Assembly (NCBI GenBank): GCA_019358935.1
Contig: JAHHIK010000065.1
Span: 1 to 48,507 of the forward strand
Direction of reading: 5' to 3'
Source of the DNA: Tolypothrix carrinoi HA7290-LM1
GTDB lineage: Bacteria > Cyanobacteriota > Cyanobacteriia > Cyanobacteriales > Nostocaceae
DNA length: 48,507 bases
Shown one piece after another: positions 35,059 to 42,537 of the stretch (position 1 is its first letter; each line of letters starts with the position of its first letter). The position numbers were made by a program, and so were the translations under genes. The notes under the pieces are model-generated. The model saw nothing but the letters and a program-made list of their open reading frames with translations, was not told the DNA's origin and did not search any database.

Positions 35059-35163
35059 TTGCTGGTTGTTGGTTGGAGCGTTGTTAGTTGTTAGTTGTTA
35101 GTTGTTGGTGAGCCACTGCGTTGGTCTGGGCAATTGACTTTTTCATCCAGATGTATATTAACC

Positions 35164-36705
35164 GTGTCTAAACTAGATTTAGCTTCTATCAGTAAACCAA
35201 AAACTGAGTCTGGGATTAATTCCGACTTGCTCCACCCTGTTACGCCAAACGAGTTTTTACCCCCCATTAGTCGCTGGAGTACTGTTGGAGGAGTTGTACT
35301 CTTAGGGATTTTTGGTGCTGTTATTATGCTTGCAGCCATCTGCAAATATAAAGTCATTATTAAAGCTCCAGCGACGATTCGCCCGACTGGAGAATTGCGC
35401 TTAGTGCAAGCAGCAACAGAAGGAAGAATTAAAAGTATTGCTGTGCAGGCTAATCATGTGCTCAAACAAGGGGATGTCATCGCCACAATTGACGATTCTC
35501 GCCTACAAACCCAAAAAAAGCAACTGCTCACCAATATTCAACAAGCTAGACTTCAACTATCTCAACTTGATGCCCAAATTCGTGCAATAGAAGCACAGAT
35601 AGCAGCCCAAAGCGATCGCACTAATCGTGATGTCACTTCAGTACAAGCAGAACTTAGCCGCAGCCAAAGGGATTTAAAAGACAAGCAAATTAACTCAATT
35701 GCTCAAGCAACAGAAGCGGCAGCCAATTTAAAACAAGCTCAAAAGGAATGGCAGAAAACACAGTTAAAGTTGAAATCAGCTTTGGCAAATTTCAAGTCTA
35801 GTGAGGCTGCTTTCAAAGCAGCAAAGGCAAAACGAGACAGATATCAGCCCTTAGCCCAAAGCGGATCGATTTCAATAGATCAATTCCAAGAAGCACAGCT
35901 AGCAGTTGAGCAACAAGAACAACTCCTAGAGTCGCAAAAAGCTACAGTCCAAGAGTATCGAGAAGCAATTGGGCAGCAACAACAAGCTATAGAAGCAGCC
36001 AAAGCTAGACAGCAAGTAGCATTAATTTCCCTTAATCCCAGCGATGCCAGCGTGGTCATCTCAAAAGAGAAAATTGCCGCAGAAATCGCCACAGGTAAAA
36101 TCAACCTTGCAGGGTTAAACCGAGAAAGAGAGCAAACGATACAACAAAAAGTTGAAATTCAAAAGCAATTGAGCAGCAATACACAACAACTTCAACAAGT
36201 CAATAGAGAAATTACCGATACTATTATTCGTGCCTCTGCCTCTGGCACTATCCACGAACTCAATCTGCGTAACCCTCAACAAGTACTACGCTCTGGTGAT
36301 GTAATTGCCAAAATTGCTCCTAGTGATTCACCTTTGGTAATTAAAGCCTTAGTAGCATCTGAGGAAATTCCGCAAGTAAAAACAGGTCAAAGGGTGGAAA
36401 TACGAGTTGCTGGTTGTTCCTATACCGACTACGGCACTCTTTCAGGGAAAGTCAAAGCCATTTCTCCAGATGCGATACCTACACTAAGCTACGAAAATCG
36501 CACCTCTACTCAAGATGCTAGTAGCACAACTACAAAAACAGGCACTTACGAGGTCACTATTCAGCCTGAAAATATGGAATTAACCGCTGGAAGTCGCAAG
36601 TGTGCTATTCAATCCGGTATGGAGGGGAGGGCAGATATTATTTCCCGTCAAGAGACGGTTTTGACATTTGTGTTACGAAAGGCAAGACTGCTGACGGACT
36701 TGTAA
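35164..36705 (+). CDS. HlyD-family periplasmic adaptor (membrane fusion protein)
   Basis: N-terminal transmembrane segment, IRPTGELRLVQAATEG, a long coiled coil, IRASASG, YGTLSGKV.AISPD, GMEGRADI. GTG at 35164 is the likely start. Confidence 0.9.
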   Translation: MSKLDLASISKPKTESGINSDLLHPVTPNEFLPPISRWSTVGGVVLLGIFGAVIMLAAICKYKVIIKAPATIRPTGELRLVQAATEGRIKSIAVQANHVLKQGDVIATIDDSRLQTQKKQLLTNIQQARLQLSQLDAQIRAIEAQIAAQSDRTNRDVTSVQAELSRSQRDLKDKQINSIAQATEAAANLKQAQKEWQKTQLKLKSALANFKSSEAAFKAAKAKRDRYQPLAQSGSISIDQFQEAQLAVEQQEQLLESQKATVQEYREAIGQQQQAIEAAKARQQVALISLNPSDASVVISKEKIAAEIATGKINLAGLNREREQTIQQKVEIQKQLSSNTQQLQQVNREITDTIIRASASGTIHELNLRNPQQVLRSGDVIAKIAPSDSPLVIKALVASEEIPQVKTGQRVEIRVAGCSYTDYGTLSGKVKAISPDAIPTLSYENRTSTQDASSTTTKTGTYEVTIQPENMELTAGSRKCAIQSGMEGRADIISRQETVLTFVLRKARLLTDL

Positions 36706-36710
36706 TGGGA

Positions 36711-36833
36711 CTAGTGTTCCAACTCATTCTTGATTTCTCTTCCTTCTCCTTCGGAGACGCCAAGGGCGAACGCGTACTTGGCGCCTTTGCGGTTAGTTTT
36801 TTCCCTATCATAATTAATGCGATAGACCACTAG
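36711..36833. repeat. possible MITE-like element of about 120 bp between hlyD and the ABC transporter
   Basis: Bounded by CTAGTG...CACTAG; the internal CTTTGCGGTTAGTTTT resembles the interior of 11731..11824. Confidence 0.4.
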
Positions 36834-36905
36834 ATGAAAATATGAAAAGTTCACCAAGCTGTGCGTGAGCGGTAAGCCAGACGATCCTAAGCTGTTAAAA
36901 TTTCA

Positions 36906-39050
36906 ATGAAATATGCAATTGTTCTCCAACACAGCGAAGAAGACTGCGGTGCAGCGTGTCTTGCCACCGTAGCTAAATCCTATGGACGTAAATTTGCTAT
37001 CTCGCGTATCCGTGAGGCAGTTGGCACTGGGCAGTTAGGAACAACGCTTTTGGGGTTACGTCGAGGGGCGGAAATTTTAGGCTTTAATGCCCGTTCTGTC
37101 AAAGCTACACCTTTGCTTATCGATCGCCTTAACGAAGCTCCTCTACCAGCCATTATTCACTGGAAGGGCTATCACTGGGTTGTTCTACATGAACGCAAAG
37201 GCAAAAAGTACGTCGTTGCAGACCCGGCAATAGGTGTGCGCTATCTTACCCGTGAGGCGCTTACAGAGTCCTGGATGAATGGGGTGATGCTGCTGTTAGT
37301 GCCAGATGAGAGCCGCTTCTACGAGCAACCTAATGACCGGATTGCTGGCTTTGGGCGCTTCTTACGTCGCATTTGGCACTATCGCCACCTAGTTGCCGAA
37401 ATTCTACCCCTAAACCTGGTAATTGGGCTGCTTTCTTTGGCATTTCCCCTGTTGATTCAGGTACTTACTGATGACGTATTGGTGCGAAGAGATACTGAAC
37501 TACTGGTGACAGTGGCGATCGCTGTCTCTGCGATGATTCTCTTCAGTAGTCTGTTGCGCCTCATTCAAGCACATCTGGTAGCTCATTTTGCCCAACGCTT
37601 AGAACTAGGATTGGCTTTAGAATTTGGTCGCCAAATTCTGCAACTTCCCCTCAGCTACTACGAATCTCATCGCAGTGGGGAGATCGTCAGCCGTTTGCGG
37701 GACATTCGAGAAATTAATTTGTTGATTTCCCAAGTAGTCACCACTTTGCCTAGTGAGTTATTCGTCGCTTTGGTGTCCTTGGGGTTAATGCTGGTGTACA
37801 GCTGGCAGCTTACCATCGCGGCGATCGCAGTAGCTTTTCTCATGAGTCTATCAACCATAGTCTTCTTGCCTGCTTTACAACAGAAGACCCGTGATGTCTT
37901 AGTTACTGATACAGAAAACCAAGGACTTTTAGTTGAGACTTTCAAGGGTGCTTTAACCCTCAAAACTACTAATGCCTCACCTCAAGCTTGGGAAGAACTG
38001 CAAAGTCGCTTCGGTTCCCTGGCAAATGTCACCTTCAGATTGTTACATATCAGTATTGTCAATGGCGTCTTTTCTAACCTAATCTCTGAGATGGGTTTTC
38101 TTGCTATTCTCTGTTTTGGCAGCATTTTAGTCATTCGGCGAGAACTTACCATCGGTCAACTGCTGGCATTCAACGGTATGAATCGCAACTTCATAGCACT
38201 GATTACTACCGCAATCAACTTTGTTGACGAGTTCGCCCGTGTCCAAACTGCTACCCAACGCCTAAGTGACATCATCGACGCTAAAGCAGAGGTTCGGGAT
38301 AATGCCCCTCAAGATTGGGCAGAGATTCCTGCTGATGCTGACATTACCTGTAAGGATCTCAACTTCCATCACGTTGGTCGAGTAGACTTGCTGCAAGACT
38401 TTTCTATTACTATCCCTGGTGGAAAGGTGACAGCGCTCATTGGCAAGTCTGGCTGTGGTAAAAGTACACTAGCAAAACTAATTGCCTGTCTTTACACGCT
38501 GCAATCTGGCAATATCCGCTTTGGGCGTTACAATCAATCTGACCTGTCTTTAGATTGTTTGCGTCAACAAGTTATCCTCATACCTCAAGAAGCGCACTTC
38601 TGGAGCCGTTCAATTATCGATAACTTTCGCTTCAGCTACCCTCATGCGACTTTAGAGCAAGTGGTAAATGCTTGTGAGATTGCTGGTGCTGACGATTTCA
38701 TCAGCGAACTACCAGACAAATATCAGACTGTACTGGGTGAGTTTGGGGCAAATCTTTCAGGGGGACAACGGCAAAGGTTAGCGATCGCTCGTGCAATTGT
38801 CACCGATCCACCCGTCCTAATTTTAGATGAATCCACTGGCGCACTCGACCCGGTGACGGAAGCCGAGGTACTCGACAAACTACTGGCACATCGTCAAGGC
38901 AAAACAACAATAATGATTAGCCATCGTCCGAGAGTAATTCAGCGAGCAAATTGGATTGTCCTGCTGGATAAAGGTGAACTCAAACTAACAGGAACCCCGG
39001 AAGAGTTGAGCCAACTTCCGGGGGAACATCGGGATTTTTTGAATCCGTAA
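36906..39050 (+). CDS. peptidase-containing ABC transporter (C39 + TMD + NBD), double-glycine peptide exporter
   Basis: QHSEEDCGAACL (catalytic Cys), HWVV (His), VADP (Asp), GKSGCGKST, LSGGQRQR, ILDE. Confidence 0.95.
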   Translation: MKYAIVLQHSEEDCGAACLATVAKSYGRKFAISRIREAVGTGQLGTTLLGLRRGAEILGFNARSVKATPLLIDRLNEAPLPAIIHWKGYHWVVLHERKGKKYVVADPAIGVRYLTREALTESWMNGVMLLLVPDESRFYEQPNDRIAGFGRFLRRIWHYRHLVAEILPLNLVIGLLSLAFPLLIQVLTDDVLVRRDTELLVTVAIAVSAMILFSSLLRLIQAHLVAHFAQRLELGLALEFGRQILQLPLSYYESHRSGEIVSRLRDIREINLLISQVVTTLPSELFVALVSLGLMLVYSWQLTIAAIAVAFLMSLSTIVFLPALQQKTRDVLVTDTENQGLLVETFKGALTLKTTNASPQAWEELQSRFGSLANVTFRLLHISIVNGVFSNLISEMGFLAILCFGSILVIRRELTIGQLLAFNGMNRNFIALITTAINFVDEFARVQTATQRLSDIIDAKAEVRDNAPQDWAEIPADADITCKDLNFHHVGRVDLLQDFSITIPGGKVTALIGKSGCGKSTLAKLIACLYTLQSGNIRFGRYNQSDLSLDCLRQQVILIPQEAHFWSRSIIDNFRFSYPHATLEQVVNACEIAGADDFISELPDKYQTVLGEFGANLSGGQRQRLAIARAIVTDPPVLILDESTGALDPVTEAEVLDKLLAHRQGKTTIMISHRPRVIQRANWIVLLDKGELKLTGTPEELSQLPGEHRDFLNP

Positions 39051-39091: not shown

Positions 39092-39328
39092 TTATGCAAC
39101 GCCGTCTAATTCCATATAAAATTTAGAGTTTGTTAAAAATTCAACAGTGCTAACAGTAATATTTCCTCCTGGTGCCTTAAGAGATCCTGTATCAGTAACG
39201 ATCTTGCTGACAACTCCTCCTGACAATAACTCCTCATCATGTTCAGCTAATGGCACAATAAGTTTTGCCTCATATGAGGTAGTCAAGGTAGGCTGCAACA
39301 CATTTTTCTTGGGGATTTGGCGAAACAT
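39092..39328 (-). CDS. double-glycine leader peptide A (38-aa leader, 40-aa core)
   Basis: LIVPLAEHDEELLSGG|VVSKIVTDTGSLKAPGGNITVSTVEFLTNSKFYMELDGVA; RBS AAGGAGTT. Confidence 0.85.
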   Translation of the reverse strand: MFRQIPKKNVLQPTLTTSYEAKLIVPLAEHDEELLSGGVVSKIVTDTGSLKAPGGNITVSTVEFLTNSKFYMELDGVA

Positions 39329-39360
39329 TGTTTGAACTCCTTTGTGGTTTTAAAATCAAT

Positions 39361-39582
39361 TTATTGTTTTGCTTTATTTACCTGACTCAGCAATGAGGGG
39401 AGCGCGATCGCACTAGAAGTCGTGTCACCCGTTGCTGTAATAGTGATATTTCCTCCTTGCGAGGAATTCCCTCCTGACAAGGACTCCTCGCTGTATTCGT
39501 CTAAATCAACAACTATTTCCGAGAATTCTTTAATATTCAAGCTATGCTTTAATCGGTTTTGAATTAGAGACTTGTTAAACAT
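39361..39582 (-). CDS. double-glycine leader peptide B (38-aa leader, 35-aa core)
   Basis: IVVDLDEYSEESLSGG|NSSQGGNITITATGDTTSSAIALPSLLSQVNKAKQ; RBS AAGGAGTT. Confidence 0.85.
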   Translation of the reverse strand: MFNKSLIQNRLKHSLNIKEFSEIVVDLDEYSEESLSGGNSSQGGNITITATGDTTSSAIALPSLLSQVNKAKQ

Positions 39583-39627
39583 ATTTCAACTCCTTTTTAT
39601 ACTGCTTTGAAAAAACATCTGAGCTTA

Positions 39628-39792
39628 TTACTTAATTAGAGTTGTTCTTGACTGGCTTACATGAGTTAATTCATGCGATCTTAATTCATGGGATATTGCT
39701 CCTCCTCGACAATTGCTGGCTTCAATTTCATAAATCTCTCGATATAAGCTTCGATCCAATTGCAATAGCTTTTCTTTAGATTTCGTACTCAT
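39628..39792 (-). CDS. double-glycine leader peptide C (54 aa; not in the ORF track)
   Basis: Hand translation: MSTKSKEKLLQLDRSLYREIYEIEASNCRGG|AISHELRSHELTHVSQSRTTLIK*. Confidence 0.7.
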   Translation of the reverse strand: MSTKSKEKLLQLDRSLYREIYEIEASNCRGGAISHELRSHELTHVSQSRTTLIK

Positions 39793-39852
39793 GATTACTG
39801 TTCAAAAGAATCTTATTAAGGTATTTTATTGCTTCCCCAATTATCAGTGCGA

Positions 39853-39978
39853 TTAACCAATGCAACTGAATGCGTCCAACGCCCCGCCCAGGATTTTTTC
39901 CTGTTGGCGATCGCTCAAGTCTTGCCAAAGTCTTTTAGAAGGGTTTGATGAATTTTGAAGTGGTTGCTTGCGAAACAT
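39853..39978 (-). CDS. leader peptide D (41 aa; not in the ORF track; AG in place of GG)
   Basis: Hand translation: MFRKQPLQNSSNPSKRLWQDLSDRQQEKILAG|ALDAFSCIG*; strong RBS AAGGAGGT. Confidence 0.75.
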   Translation of the reverse strand: MFRKQPLQNSSNPSKRLWQDLSDRQQEKILGGALDAFSCIG

Positions 39979-40105
39979 GGCTACCTCCTTTGTTATTACT
40001 TATACTCTAACTCCAACGCATCCTAACTGAATATATCGCAAATGGTATTACATCAGGGTGGGAACGCTATAACCCTCGTATTGGCGGACTCGGTGGATGA
40101 GAAAT

Positions 40106-40315
40106 TTATAAGGTTAATATCAATGTTCCTCTAATTTTTCCTTCTGGTTCTGGTTGTCTAGCTCGATCCACTTCGTCAATCAATTCGCCTTTATTCATGC
40201 CTCCAGAAAGCTTTTCTGCTTGTTGGTCATTTAATTCTTGCCAAAGCTTTCTTTTCATCGTCACATTTTCTTGGGAGCTAAACTTTGGATTGGTGCAATT
40301 ATTATCTGTGTTCAT
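40106..40315 (-). CDS. double-glycine leader peptide E (39-aa leader, 30-aa core)
   Basis: Start at MNTDNN (RBS AAGGA); KLWQELNDQQAEKLSGG|MNKGELIDEVDRARQPEPEGKIRGTLILTL. Confidence 0.85.
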   Translation of the reverse strand: MNTDNNCTNPKFSSQENVTMKRKLWQELNDQQAEKLSGGMNKGELIDEVDRARQPEPEGKIRGTLILTL

Positions 40316-40328
40316 ATATTCAGTTTCC

Positions 40329-40505
40329 TTATGCGCTAAAGGGATTGGGGAAAAGTAGGACAAGAGCATTATTTGGCGGTTTGACAGATGAGCCACCAGA
40401 CAATGACTCTTCATTGTATTCATCTAGTTCCACCACAATTTTTGACAATGAGGAATTGTTTGTAAGATTTTGTGATGAATGCTTAATTGATTTCTTACCA
40501 AACAT
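40329..40505 (-). CDS. double-glycine leader peptide F (38-aa leader, 20-aa core)
   Basis: Start at MFGKK after AAGGAGTT; IVVELDEYNEESLSGG|SSVKPPNNALVLLFPNPFSA. Confidence 0.85.
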   Translation of the reverse strand: MFGKKSIKHSSQNLTNNSSLSKIVVELDEYNEESLSGGSSVKPPNNALVLLFPNPFSA

Positions 40506-40647
40506 TTTTAACTCCTTAGCTATGTCTAATTTTACAAGTATGATTAGATGCGATCGCTCACGACTAAAAGTAGCTTTGGATGAATCGCCAAGATTATTAG
40601 ACATTTTCTTCTCATGAACAACTTTTTGTCAGCTTTAGTAAATGCGA

Positions 40648-40677
40648 TCGCGATACTCCATTTTTGCGGAGTATCGC
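40648..40677. terminator. hairpin inside the peptide array, between G and F
   Basis: GCGATACTCC-N8-GGAGTATCGC. Confidence 0.45.
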
Positions 40678-40718
40678 ACAAATCACCCTACAAAGTTAGT
40701 TGAATATCTCATTACACT

Positions 40719-40931
40719 TCAGCAAACTTTGCCTGGTTGACAATTCCAGCCAATTTCGTAAGTATACTCCCAATTTTTCCACTTAATCCCATTTGAAGCA
40801 CCACCCCTAACTAGTTCTTGGGTATTTTCACTAAGTTCACACCACAAGTCGTTTGAGAGATTTTCTTTAGAGAAAATATCTTCTACTTTTAGAGAAGCGG
40901 TTTTTTGGGCTGGATTATTTTTTTGTATCAT
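40719..40931 (-). CDS. double-glycine leader peptide G (44-aa leader, 26-aa Trp/Cys-rich core)
   Basis: LWCELSENTQELVRGG|ASNGIKWKNWEYTYEIGWNCQPGKVC; RBS AAGGAGTT. Confidence 0.85.
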   Translation of the reverse strand: MIQKNNPAQKTASLKVEDIFSKENLSNDLWCELSENTQELVRGGASNGIKWKNWEYTYEIGWNCQPGKVC

Positions 40932-41049: not shown

Positions 41050-41403
41050 TTAAGCGTCTTGATGAAAGTGGCAGATGACAGATCGAACATCGAAGGAATC
41101 GTTTGGGACACCACTGATACGCAAAACATTATTGCCACTGTTTAAAACATTTCCTGCTAGCGTCACAGTTTGTGTCTGCCAATTCCCATCATTGCTAAAC
41201 AAATTTCCGACATCTGTATTGTTAACGAAAACATTGGGGCTGCCAGCAGTAAGCCCCCTTACCATAAAAGAGATGTAGGCAGTACCAGGAGCGTGTCGTC
41301 CTCCAGTATTAAAGCCCTCGGTGATGGTAAGTCCATCAGGCGCTGTTACCGTCGTCTGTTGAGTATCAGCAAGAATCGTGATAAAGTCACTAACTACAGT
41401 CAT
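41050..41403 (-). CDS. small beta-strand-rich hypothetical protein (117 aa), first gene ahead of the peptide array
   Basis: Start at MTVVSDF after GGAG; a pattern like VFVN...WQTQTVTL...L.SGNNVLRI suggests a beta-sandwich. Confidence 0.7.
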   Translation of the reverse strand: MTVVSDFITILADTQQTTVTAPDGLTITEGFNTGGRHAPGTAYISFMVRGLTAGSPNVFVNNTDVGNLFSNDGNWQTQTVTLAGNVLNSGNNVLRISGVPNDSFDVRSVICHFHQDA

Positions 41404-41605: not shown

Positions 41606-41638
41606 TTGCACACTCATGCTGTTTTTGCACAATCTTGC
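41606..41638 (-). promoter_or_regulatory. candidate AraC-family operator (tandem direct repeat)
   Basis: On -, GCAAGATTGTGCAA-AAACA-GCATGAGTGTGCAA (12/14 identical, 19-bp period), immediately after the araC stop and upstream of the peptide array. Confidence 0.55.
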
Positions 41639-42537
41639 TATAACTTGAATAAAGTTTTAGGTGTAACTCCAGTCAATCGTTTGAAGTGGCGATTGAGGTG
41701 ACTTTGATGGGCAAAACCACAGGCTTGGGCAACATCGGCAATACTCATCTTACCTTGTAGCAGTAGTTGCTTCGCCCGTTCTACCCGCTGTTGAATCAAA
41801 TACTGGTGTGGACTAAGACCTGTAGATTGCTTAAATAATCGACAAAAGTAATAGCGACTGATGCCAAGATAAAGTGCGATCGCATCAAGAGAAATCTCTT
41901 GTGCTAAATTATCCTGGATATAATCAACTGCTTTTTTTAGCTGCTGTTGCGGTAAACCCCCTTCATACTCTTGTATAAAGGATTTTCGAGTTGAGTAATT
42001 TTGCAGGAGATGCACAGCTAAAAAGGTTGCGGCTGATTCAGCATAAAGACGGCTACCTGAACCATTAGTTTTAAGCTGTGTCTTCAGTCCCAGCCCAATT
42101 TGATGAATCAGTGCATCTTGAGCGATCAGATGCGGTAGCATTTCATATTGATCCGTATCCAGCAACTCTACAGCATTGCGAGTCAGTAATTCCGGCTCTA
42201 AATTGAGCAAAAGAATGTTGGCATCCTTATCCCAACGGATTGCTTGGGAAGTATGCATCGGACAAAGCCCTACGGCACCGGTAAACATTAACCCTGTTTT
42301 CAGATGCCTATCTAGAGTTCGCTCCACCTGAAAACTCTGACCAAGATTAATGGTGATGACAAATTGTTCCAAAGAATACTCAGGAGTCTCCCCTGGTGGT
42401 AGGAAGTGCTGTTCCAGACTCATAGCGCTCCACATTGTTCTGCCGCTAGAAAGCATAGGCGGTTGGGAGAAAACTTGTGGAAAAGCATTTTCGCCGTTTG
42501 CAACTGTTTGTTGTTGGCTATTGTTAGGTGTTTTCAT
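41638..42537 (-). CDS. AraC/XylS family transcriptional regulator
   Basis: YFCRLFKQSTGLSPHQYL...RVERAKQLL...IADVAQACGFAHQSHLNRHFKRLTGVTP. Confidence 0.95.
   Translation of the reverse strand: MKTPNNSQQQTVANGENAFPQVFSQPPMLSSGRTMWSAMSLEQHFLPPGETPEYSLEQFVITINLGQSFQVERTLDRHLKTGLMFTGAVGLCPMHTSQAIRWDKDANILLLNLEPELLTRNAVELLDTDQYEMLPHLIAQDALIHQIGLGLKTQLKTNGSGSRLYAESAATFLAVHLLQNYSTRKSFIQEYEGGLPQQQLKKAVDYIQDNLAQEISLDAIALYLGISRYYFCRLFKQSTGLSPHQYLIQQRVERAKQLLLQGKMSIADVAQACGFAHQSHLNRHFKRLTGVTPKTLFKL

Follow-up and report, generated by a model that had tools for sequence, protein, structure and literature searches.

The double-glycine precursor P0001 of Tolypothrix carrinoi HA7290-LM1 (69 aa; 40106..40315, minus strand) carries a 30-residue core in which look-alikes of two conserved proteins, the histone-like protein HU and ATP synthase subunit c (AtpH), stand one behind the other. 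The gene lies in a contig of 48,507 nucleotides (the window, meaning the whole stretch of DNA analysed), and comparable collage cores are encoded beside a group of related exporters. Confidence is high in the anatomy of these cores and in the selection acting on them, as judged from their donor matches, the pairings of their pieces and the conservation of their amino acids. The further proposal, for which belief and doubt are about evenly weighted, is that the cores are exported, mimic peptides set free by lysis and thereby present decoys or false alarms to peptide-reading receptors. P0001 reads leader-GG-MNKGELIDEVDRARQPEPEGKIRGTLILTL, with its GG at 40204-40199 and the first core residue, Met, at 40198; a second possible start of the ORF lies at 40258, and an identical sequence is present in the NCBI and JGI collections.

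P0001 belongs to an array of seven small double-glycine precursors (39092-40931), which share leader repeats among neighbours and sit between an AraC-family regulator (41638..42537, minus strand; PF12833) and a convergent pair of export genes (35095-39050). The pair consists of a HlyD-type adaptor of a type I secretion system (35095..36705, plus strand; PF13437 over cut-off, TIGR01843 at E 8e-41 and below cut-off) and a C39 peptidase-containing ABC transporter, or PCAT (36906..39050, plus strand; PF03412, PF00664 and PF00005 over cut-off), whose closest relatives are found in Nostocales and other filamentous cyanobacteria. The P0001 leader shows the conserved acidic/hydrophobic pattern ending in GG and is adjacent to both export genes, as is characteristic of a PCAT-exported precursor. 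By analogy with its family, the transporter would cut after GG and export the core through the HlyD adaptor, in which case the mature peptide would begin exactly as HU does; the AraC-family protein probably controls the array. A modified RiPP precursor of the NHLP, Nif11 or lanthipeptide type was considered and set aside, with no leader-family match and no modifying enzyme in the window cluster. Between the regulator and the peptides lies a 117-aa protein (41050..41403, minus strand) with a weak DUF7383 likeness (Pfam E 0.0024, below cut-off) and a counterpart in the related locus L031. No excess of promoters or terminators over shuffles was found in the window.

The first ten core residues (40169..40198, minus strand) share eight with the product of the genome's single HU gene (G000:C20:65193+), and HU's own Met falls directly after the predicted cleavage site, in agreement with the sequence-only reading. 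The likeness is confined to residues 1-10, and the HU/IHF family PF00216, a domain of about 90 residues, has no Pfam match in P0001. Taken alone, the ten-residue match reaches only E 0.049 against 48,468 six-frame ORFs, which is the one point in favour of chance. Chance is nevertheless refuted, and is given next to no credence, by shuffle controls and by longer pieces in orthologous proteins, so that the likeness exceeds what a random 8-mer would give. HU is the best of the 39,298 Met-starting 10-mers in the genome for this core start (score 43, next 31), a score reached by 0/300 shuffles. Ten orthologous proteins of P0001 were found; P0007-P0010 and a peptide of locus L025 carry about 16 HU-like residues, and three cores with a longer HU piece match at E 1.9e-5 to 1.3e-4.

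The stretch that follows had been read as an AAA+ Walker B motif (LIDEVDRA), overlapping HU at LID as if joined through a micro-homology, and neither idea survived. Of the four positions preceding DE, only two are hydrophobic. Orthologues do not conserve the stretch, and P0004 keeps HU's Asp-Ala-Val at this place. As an own-genome match the stretch reaches E 7.2; the best genome-wide identity to the 8-mer is 6/8, with four such matches, one of them to an AAA-like protein. The real second piece is a look-alike of ATP synthase subunit c, separated from the HU piece by a two-residue linker that differs among orthologues. A 17-base exact DNA match from the linker region to contig C68 (E 0.032) sits inside a large unrelated gene, read in a different frame, and was taken as chance.

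The subunit c piece (core residues 13-30; 40109..40162, minus strand) corresponds to AtpH residues 40-57, the polar loop and the start of helix 2. It was absent from the sequence-only reading and is stronger than the HU likeness: 16/18 residues are identical at E 1.6e-9 among the genome's own ORFs, and 39/45 bases match at the DNA level. The piece also matches NCBIfam NF005608 over profile positions 40-57 only (E 1.7e-5; 25.4 bits vs a cut-off of 128) and c subunits in the PDB (E 7e-4). P0001 is not itself a subunit c, as the full two-helix hairpin above cut-off (NF005608/PF00137) is lacking, and the real atpH is located apart from it on contig C107. In locus L025 the partner of the HU piece is another part of AtpH, residues 60-69.

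Other members of the array show similar resemblances. The precursor adjoining P0001 upstream (40329..40505, minus strand) ends its core with a look-alike of the AtpH C-terminus (40338-40367; 9/10 identical, E 0.004 among own-genome ORFs), and its L031 orthologue is identical at 10/10 positions. A further core (39361..39582, minus strand) ends in a type IV pilin-like N-terminal helix region (39364-39411; 12/16, E 5.2e-5 to an ORF on G000:C115), the pilin label of this donor coming from its prepilin-type N-terminus with no family scan behind it. The precursor at 39628..39792 (minus strand) carries an eCIS-core motif (PF13699; Pfam E 0.0071, below cut-off) and a small internal duplication in its core (39666-39695, repeat D6). 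Matches of the precursor at 39092..39328 (minus strand) are weak and not significant alone (10/13 at E 0.15, and others at E 1-7). Their donors we take to be prephenate dehydrogenase-like and haemagglutinin-repeat-like proteins. For the remaining two, a search of the genome's own ORFs showed no donor for the nine-residue core at 39853..39978 (minus strand; leader weakly like NF038167, E 0.098), and own-genome, NCBIfam and Pfam searches found none for the array's first member at 40719..40931 (minus strand; leader NF038167 E 0.012, also weak).

The collage design recurs in related clusters. In total, 77 loci around related exporters and eight around peptide matches were gathered (three fetched twice and counted once), from which 232 raw rows of GG precursors were extracted by pattern. 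In loci with an exporter identity of at least 74%, 30/103 cores match ORFs of this genome at E<=0.001, four of the 30 having false leaders (two LuxR pieces and two self matches), and three shuffles and one reversal each gave 0/103. A cleaned set of 123 cores was made by removing nine false leaders by hand and adding three loci by peptide likeness; L060 and L068 were added after their motifs had been seen. Within it, 38 cores reach E<=0.001 against conserved host proteins, compared with 0-1 in each of ten shuffles, and alternative frames give 0-2 cores per frame over the same donor loci. Donors in the own-genome search, some of them labelled by reading the sequence, are AtpH (three pieces), porins (five pieces), pilin, HU, PsaA/B, P-II, S10, plastocyanin, PsaD, thioredoxin, EF-Tu (its N-terminal piece at E 0.001) and a phycocyanin beta-like chain. 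Family scans of these 123 cores, in which nearly all matches fall below curated cut-offs, again returned AtpH, PsaA/B, plastocyanin, porin, P-II and S10 and added PsaE, PsbJ, ApcA, TssD/Hcp, CIS13, H-X9-DG and eCIS core. The pieces are 8-21 residues long (median 13). With 30 hand-made motifs, at least one occurs in 73/123 cores and at least two in 24/123, in 16 different pairings; the other 50/123 cores have none.

Mosaic cores are confined to one exporter clade, usually flanked by an AraC gene. In a quick tree of 52/79 exporters (the others being incomplete or filtered out), all 15/15 mosaic loci fall in one 20-row branch (SH-aLRT 99) and 0/32 outside it. Matches at E<=0.001 were also obtained for 13/88 cores of distant exporter loci, but eight of these match a paralogous repeat peptide of this genome and four are other homologues or false leaders, leaving L060 as the single mosaic case, which the exporter tree places inside the clade. 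The branch mixes several families and contains a plasmid record, suggesting that the peptide cluster moves. In a plasmid-borne cluster (L049:4396-5291, minus strand) the cores give CIS13 and H-X9-DG matches and for the most part resemble stretches of phage-tail or contractile-injection proteins and of what we take to be a Planctomycete-type pilin-like tail, rather than photosynthesis proteins.

Several further features were observed in or near the related arrays. Proteins of about 670-695 aa lie inside peptide arrays (L034:9294-11309, L034:13008-15092 and L035:12874-14958), one of them with a full eCIS-core and a peptidoglycan-binding domain, the family imitated by some cores. Beta-lactamase-fold serine hydrolases occur within some arrays (L024:38-1063 and L032:3551-4813) and are possible peptidases for the cores; among the related loci, L060 also contains a PatG-like protease and L035 a GNAT. 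Cores of L024, L040, L044, L048 and L051 share recurrent motifs without a donor, such as a core-start Cys/Trp motif and a Trp-rich beta-strand-like block, which may copy proteins absent from this genome. A separate GG precursor family (G000:C32:45313-45654 and L053, L054, L067, L071, L074, L078, L086 and L090) has short tandem Lys-Tyr/Phe-Pro-Ser-Asp core repeats and lies next to exporters outside the mosaic clade. In L069, L072, L075-L077, L079, L082, L083, L085, L091-L093, L095, L098, L099, L106 and L107 the cores resemble whole small domains, which we take to be crystallin-like or SH3-like.

The placement of the pieces is not random with respect to the donor termini, although the rows counted are not independent. 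Donor N-terminal pieces start at core position 1-2 in 7/9 cases and lie at the core end in 1/9. Pieces taken from donor C-termini close the core in 12/14 cases and open it in 2/14. Cleavage would thus tend to recreate the end that the donor itself has; this accounts for the Met directly after GG in P0001 and bears out the importance that had been attached to its position. Internal donor pieces, however, also start the core in 11/37 cases and end it in 17/37, which weakens the argument from terminal polarity. The boundaries are not trypsin-like, with Lys/Arg at 3/37 ends and before 2/43 starts (background 8%). A rough expression proxy based on codons places 10/14 of the ranked donors in its top 5%; the hup value was computed from an incorrect start further upstream. 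Donor proteins come from the cytoplasm, thylakoid, lumen and outer membrane, and weapon and foreign-type proteins are among them; such a range of compartments fits a reader of linear peptides better than a single target. A donor can be recognised only if it is conserved, so the bias towards abundant and conserved proteins is partly an ascertainment effect.

The precise fusion of HU's start to the cleavage site had been attributed to fragment capture rather than chance. Its non-chance element stood, but a simple recent capture did not. Alignment of the core start to the genome's own hup gives eight mismatches in the first ten codons, six of them at third positions, and codon sharing between AtpH pieces and atpH is at chance level. 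Over the 20/22 pieces compared with their own genome's atpH, 59 codons are the same, 141 synonymous and 17 non-synonymous; the codon usage of the peptides predicts 59.5 shared codons, and atpH genes of other genomes give the same picture; the pieces are therefore old and conserved as protein. For the L025 HU piece, 9/12 codons are shared with its own hup. Alternatively, fragments of genes or mRNAs might have been captured neutrally or recently, for instance when abundant transcripts were reverse transcribed, and no function would be tied to the likeness. This would agree with the donors being mostly highly expressed genes on the codon-based proxy, with the detectable DNA likeness to atpH (39/45) and with a short-range pN close to pS. 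It is highly improbable nonetheless. All significant pieces are in frame and sense, and over 70 segments, some probably chance matches, 278 codons are the same as in this genome's genes vs 271 expected. Asn78 is encoded by AAT in 11/11 pieces and by AAC in 24/26 atpH genes. In 97 pairs of pieces from different genomes, 370 codons are the same vs 252 expected, so that the pieces appear to descend from common copies, inherited and shuffled between peptides. Capture may describe the first origin of the pieces and is largely refuted as an account of their maintenance; if they were captured from DNA, this would have been long ago, with the pieces since kept by selection on amino acids.

Selection is also visible in the contrast between pieces and their surroundings. 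At four non-anchor AtpH positions there are 98 synonymous vs 41 non-synonymous differences, compared with 24 synonymous vs 224 non-synonymous in the six codons further upstream, the pairs in both counts not being independent. Over a short range, selection on the cores looks weak: between the window and L031 the cores have pN 0.031 and pS 0.039, compared with 0.013 and 0.167 for the exporter. In 14 more distant whole-core pairs, pN/pS is about 0.5 (0.153/0.287). These data are read here as ancient recruitment, long-term purifying selection on the motifs and fast turnover of the linkers. It is very unlikely that the cores are matrix or adhesion proteins, comparable to the EbfG proteins, made from handy amphipathic or beta-strand pieces with an incidental donor likeness. 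Several pieces are indeed hydrophobic, and C39-exported GG-motif proteins enable biofilm formation in Synechococcus elongatus, according to the available part of PMC4997328; a bulk physical role would nevertheless not keep letter-level donor identity after synonymous sites have been randomised. At synonymous sites the peptide genes (39092-40505; pS about 0.04) have diverged from L031 only about a quarter as far as the exporter (36906-39050; 0.17), suggesting a separate recent exchange. Three Ala-to-Pro changes relative to the L031 orthologues were seen in 40106-40505 (minus strand), two of them in AtpH-derived residues that are Ala in 26/26 atpH genes; together with the duplication in the eCIS-motif peptide, they may reflect decay or escape in this strain. 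Whether pieces track the host's own AtpH variant was judged by eye and found to be inconsistent.

Pieces of the same kind recur in other bacteria. With one L032 peptide as query, 29 proteins were recovered, among them proteins of 775-5053 aa in which Hcp-like pieces stand in tandem. Several of the latter have signal-peptide-like N-termini, those named being from Bacteroidota and Planctomycetales, and two also have short tyrosine-kinase-like pieces (E 7e-5 and 3e-6). In P0015, P0016, P0024 and P0026 (2579-5053 aa), Hcp-like and FG-GAP-like pieces follow one another over a long tract; domain scans of three of these proteins showed FecR at the N-terminus and cohesin domains at the C-terminus. P0026 is named 'type VI secretion tube protein Hcp' in NCBI, and a collage composition explains spurious database names of this sort. 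The 1252-aa protein P0047, found by a search with the P0001 orthologue alignment, contains five tandem HU starts, each 9-11/12 identical to this genome's HU. A metagenome scan with P0001 gave 596 pattern matches, none confirmed, and a viral scan gave one 39% match that was judged chance from its ORF list. In the ESM Atlas, P0001 had no usable feature match and a low-confidence model, and leads for P0034 were all below 0.9.

P0001 and the other precursors of its array are of the unmodified double-glycine type, with cores that are collages of 8-21-residue look-alikes from conserved stretches of abundant proteins. In the proposed mechanism, the exported peptides would imitate the peptide debris of lysed bacteria; away from the producer, they would meet pattern-type peptide receptors on neighbouring microbes, competitors or grazers and serve there as decoys or false alarms. 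A reader of short linear peptides would suit the abundance and conservation of the donors, their spread over many compartments, the restored termini and the tandem display in giant exported proteins. Most of the donors are oligomers or polymers, which, together with the conserved amino acids and the class II bacteriocin architecture of the cluster, would also suit dominant-negative bacteriocins, in which the pieces enter a competitor and poison assembly of the source complex (the HU dimer, c-ring/F1 coupling, the pilus, the porin or the Hcp tube). Such a role is considered unlikely. Very abundant targets would be poorly suited to stoichiometric inhibition, the donors reside in five compartments without a common uptake route, and targets that have nothing to do with each other are represented within one core. 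Proteins of 1000-3000 residues that carry tandem copies would hardly enter cells, and among ORFs of at least 95 aa near the peptides in 18 loci there is no conserved immunity-like candidate, although the producer's own proteins match best.

It is equally doubtful that the cores are self-directed alarm pheromones, by which the producer and its kin would sense lysis peptides while the mimics amplify the signal, possibly through the adjacent AraC protein. An AraC gene is confirmed beside the peptides in 12/18 of the related loci listed, as it is in the window, the donors are mostly cyanobacterial proteins, and the available part of PMC6363468 describes GG peptides as quorum signals in other bacteria. 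A signal among kin would, however, have no need for dozens of rapidly reshuffled motifs (16 pairings), and no conserved receptor kinase is found among the neighbours in the 18 loci.

The exporter is of a known type, and its cargo is of an apparently undescribed kind. Cyanobacterial double-glycine cores are usually treated as hypervariable, their origin unexplained; here a shared set of look-alikes is present throughout an exporter clade, and the same kind of pieces recurs in exported proteins of other phyla. These shared pieces are selected at the amino-acid level. Something must read such short linear sequences, and the collage cores suggest molecular mimicry aimed at a putative reader. The peptides are short, unmodified and easily synthesised, which offers a direct route to the reader through pull-down and response assays. 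Should bacterial pattern recognition turn out to be the reader, one microbe would here be mimicking microbe-associated patterns towards another. More tentatively, and with doubt outweighing belief, a widespread and undescribed microbial surveillance may read short conserved peptides set free from abundant proteins of bacteria, phage-like machines and eukaryotes, with the collage genes, which range from the cyanobacterial peptides to the giant exported proteins of Bacteroidota and Planctomycetota, as a cross-phylum counter-measure or signalling language; if so, the collage vocabulary would be a ready-made ligand list of that system.

No description of cores built from pieces of conserved proteins was found in the literature searched, in which subscription papers and supplements were incompletely covered. 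Peptide MAMPs offer one parallel: elf18, the N-terminus of EF-Tu, is read by the plant receptor EFR, and such ligands, like the pieces in the cores, are short conserved linear stretches of abundant proteins. MAMPs nevertheless come from the real protein, whereas here dedicated genes make the imitation, and most of the pieces are not known MAMPs. Cyanobacterial double-glycine bacteriocin clusters were reportedly described by Wang, Fewer and Sivonen in 2011. In the available part of PMC3140520, clusters with a C39 ABC transporter and HlyD share with the present one the export machinery, the leader type, several precursors and variable cores. Their cores show very little conservation, are rich in Gly/Cys/Ser/Thr and are expected to be modified, and that part of the article does not mention copying of other proteins; the present cluster has no modifying enzyme. 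Leaders of two neighbours of P0001 score weakly as CTB family bacteriocins (NF038167; 15.8 and 12.9 bits), far below the 32-bit cut-off, and P0001 itself has no match, so that assignment to this family was rejected. The EbfG1-4/PteB system of Synechococcus elongatus, as presented in the available part of PMC4997328, resembles the cluster in its small GG-motif proteins, export by a peptidase-transporter and an apparently non-killing role; it differs in its role in biofilm development, and no mimicry of other proteins is described there.

On the side of the reader, the available part of PMC10907252 proposes DGR-diversified putative antigen sensors of multicellular bacteria as a variable receptor class. 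They are a candidate kind of reader for the cores only by analogy, having no known ligands in that part of the article. In concept, the closest precedent comes from ankyrin-repeat proteins of Bodo saltans virus, for which a decoy function has been proposed. As given in the available part of PMC5871332, fragments of essential viral genes are fused in frame to an unrelated ankyrin-repeat carrier, and the authors propose that these fragments act as decoys for host defence factors. The viral proteins differ in carrying larger, catalytic-domain fragments, in having no cleaved export leader and in not drawing on many cellular proteins, but they share with the collage cores the in-frame attachment of conserved protein pieces to a carrier of other origin.
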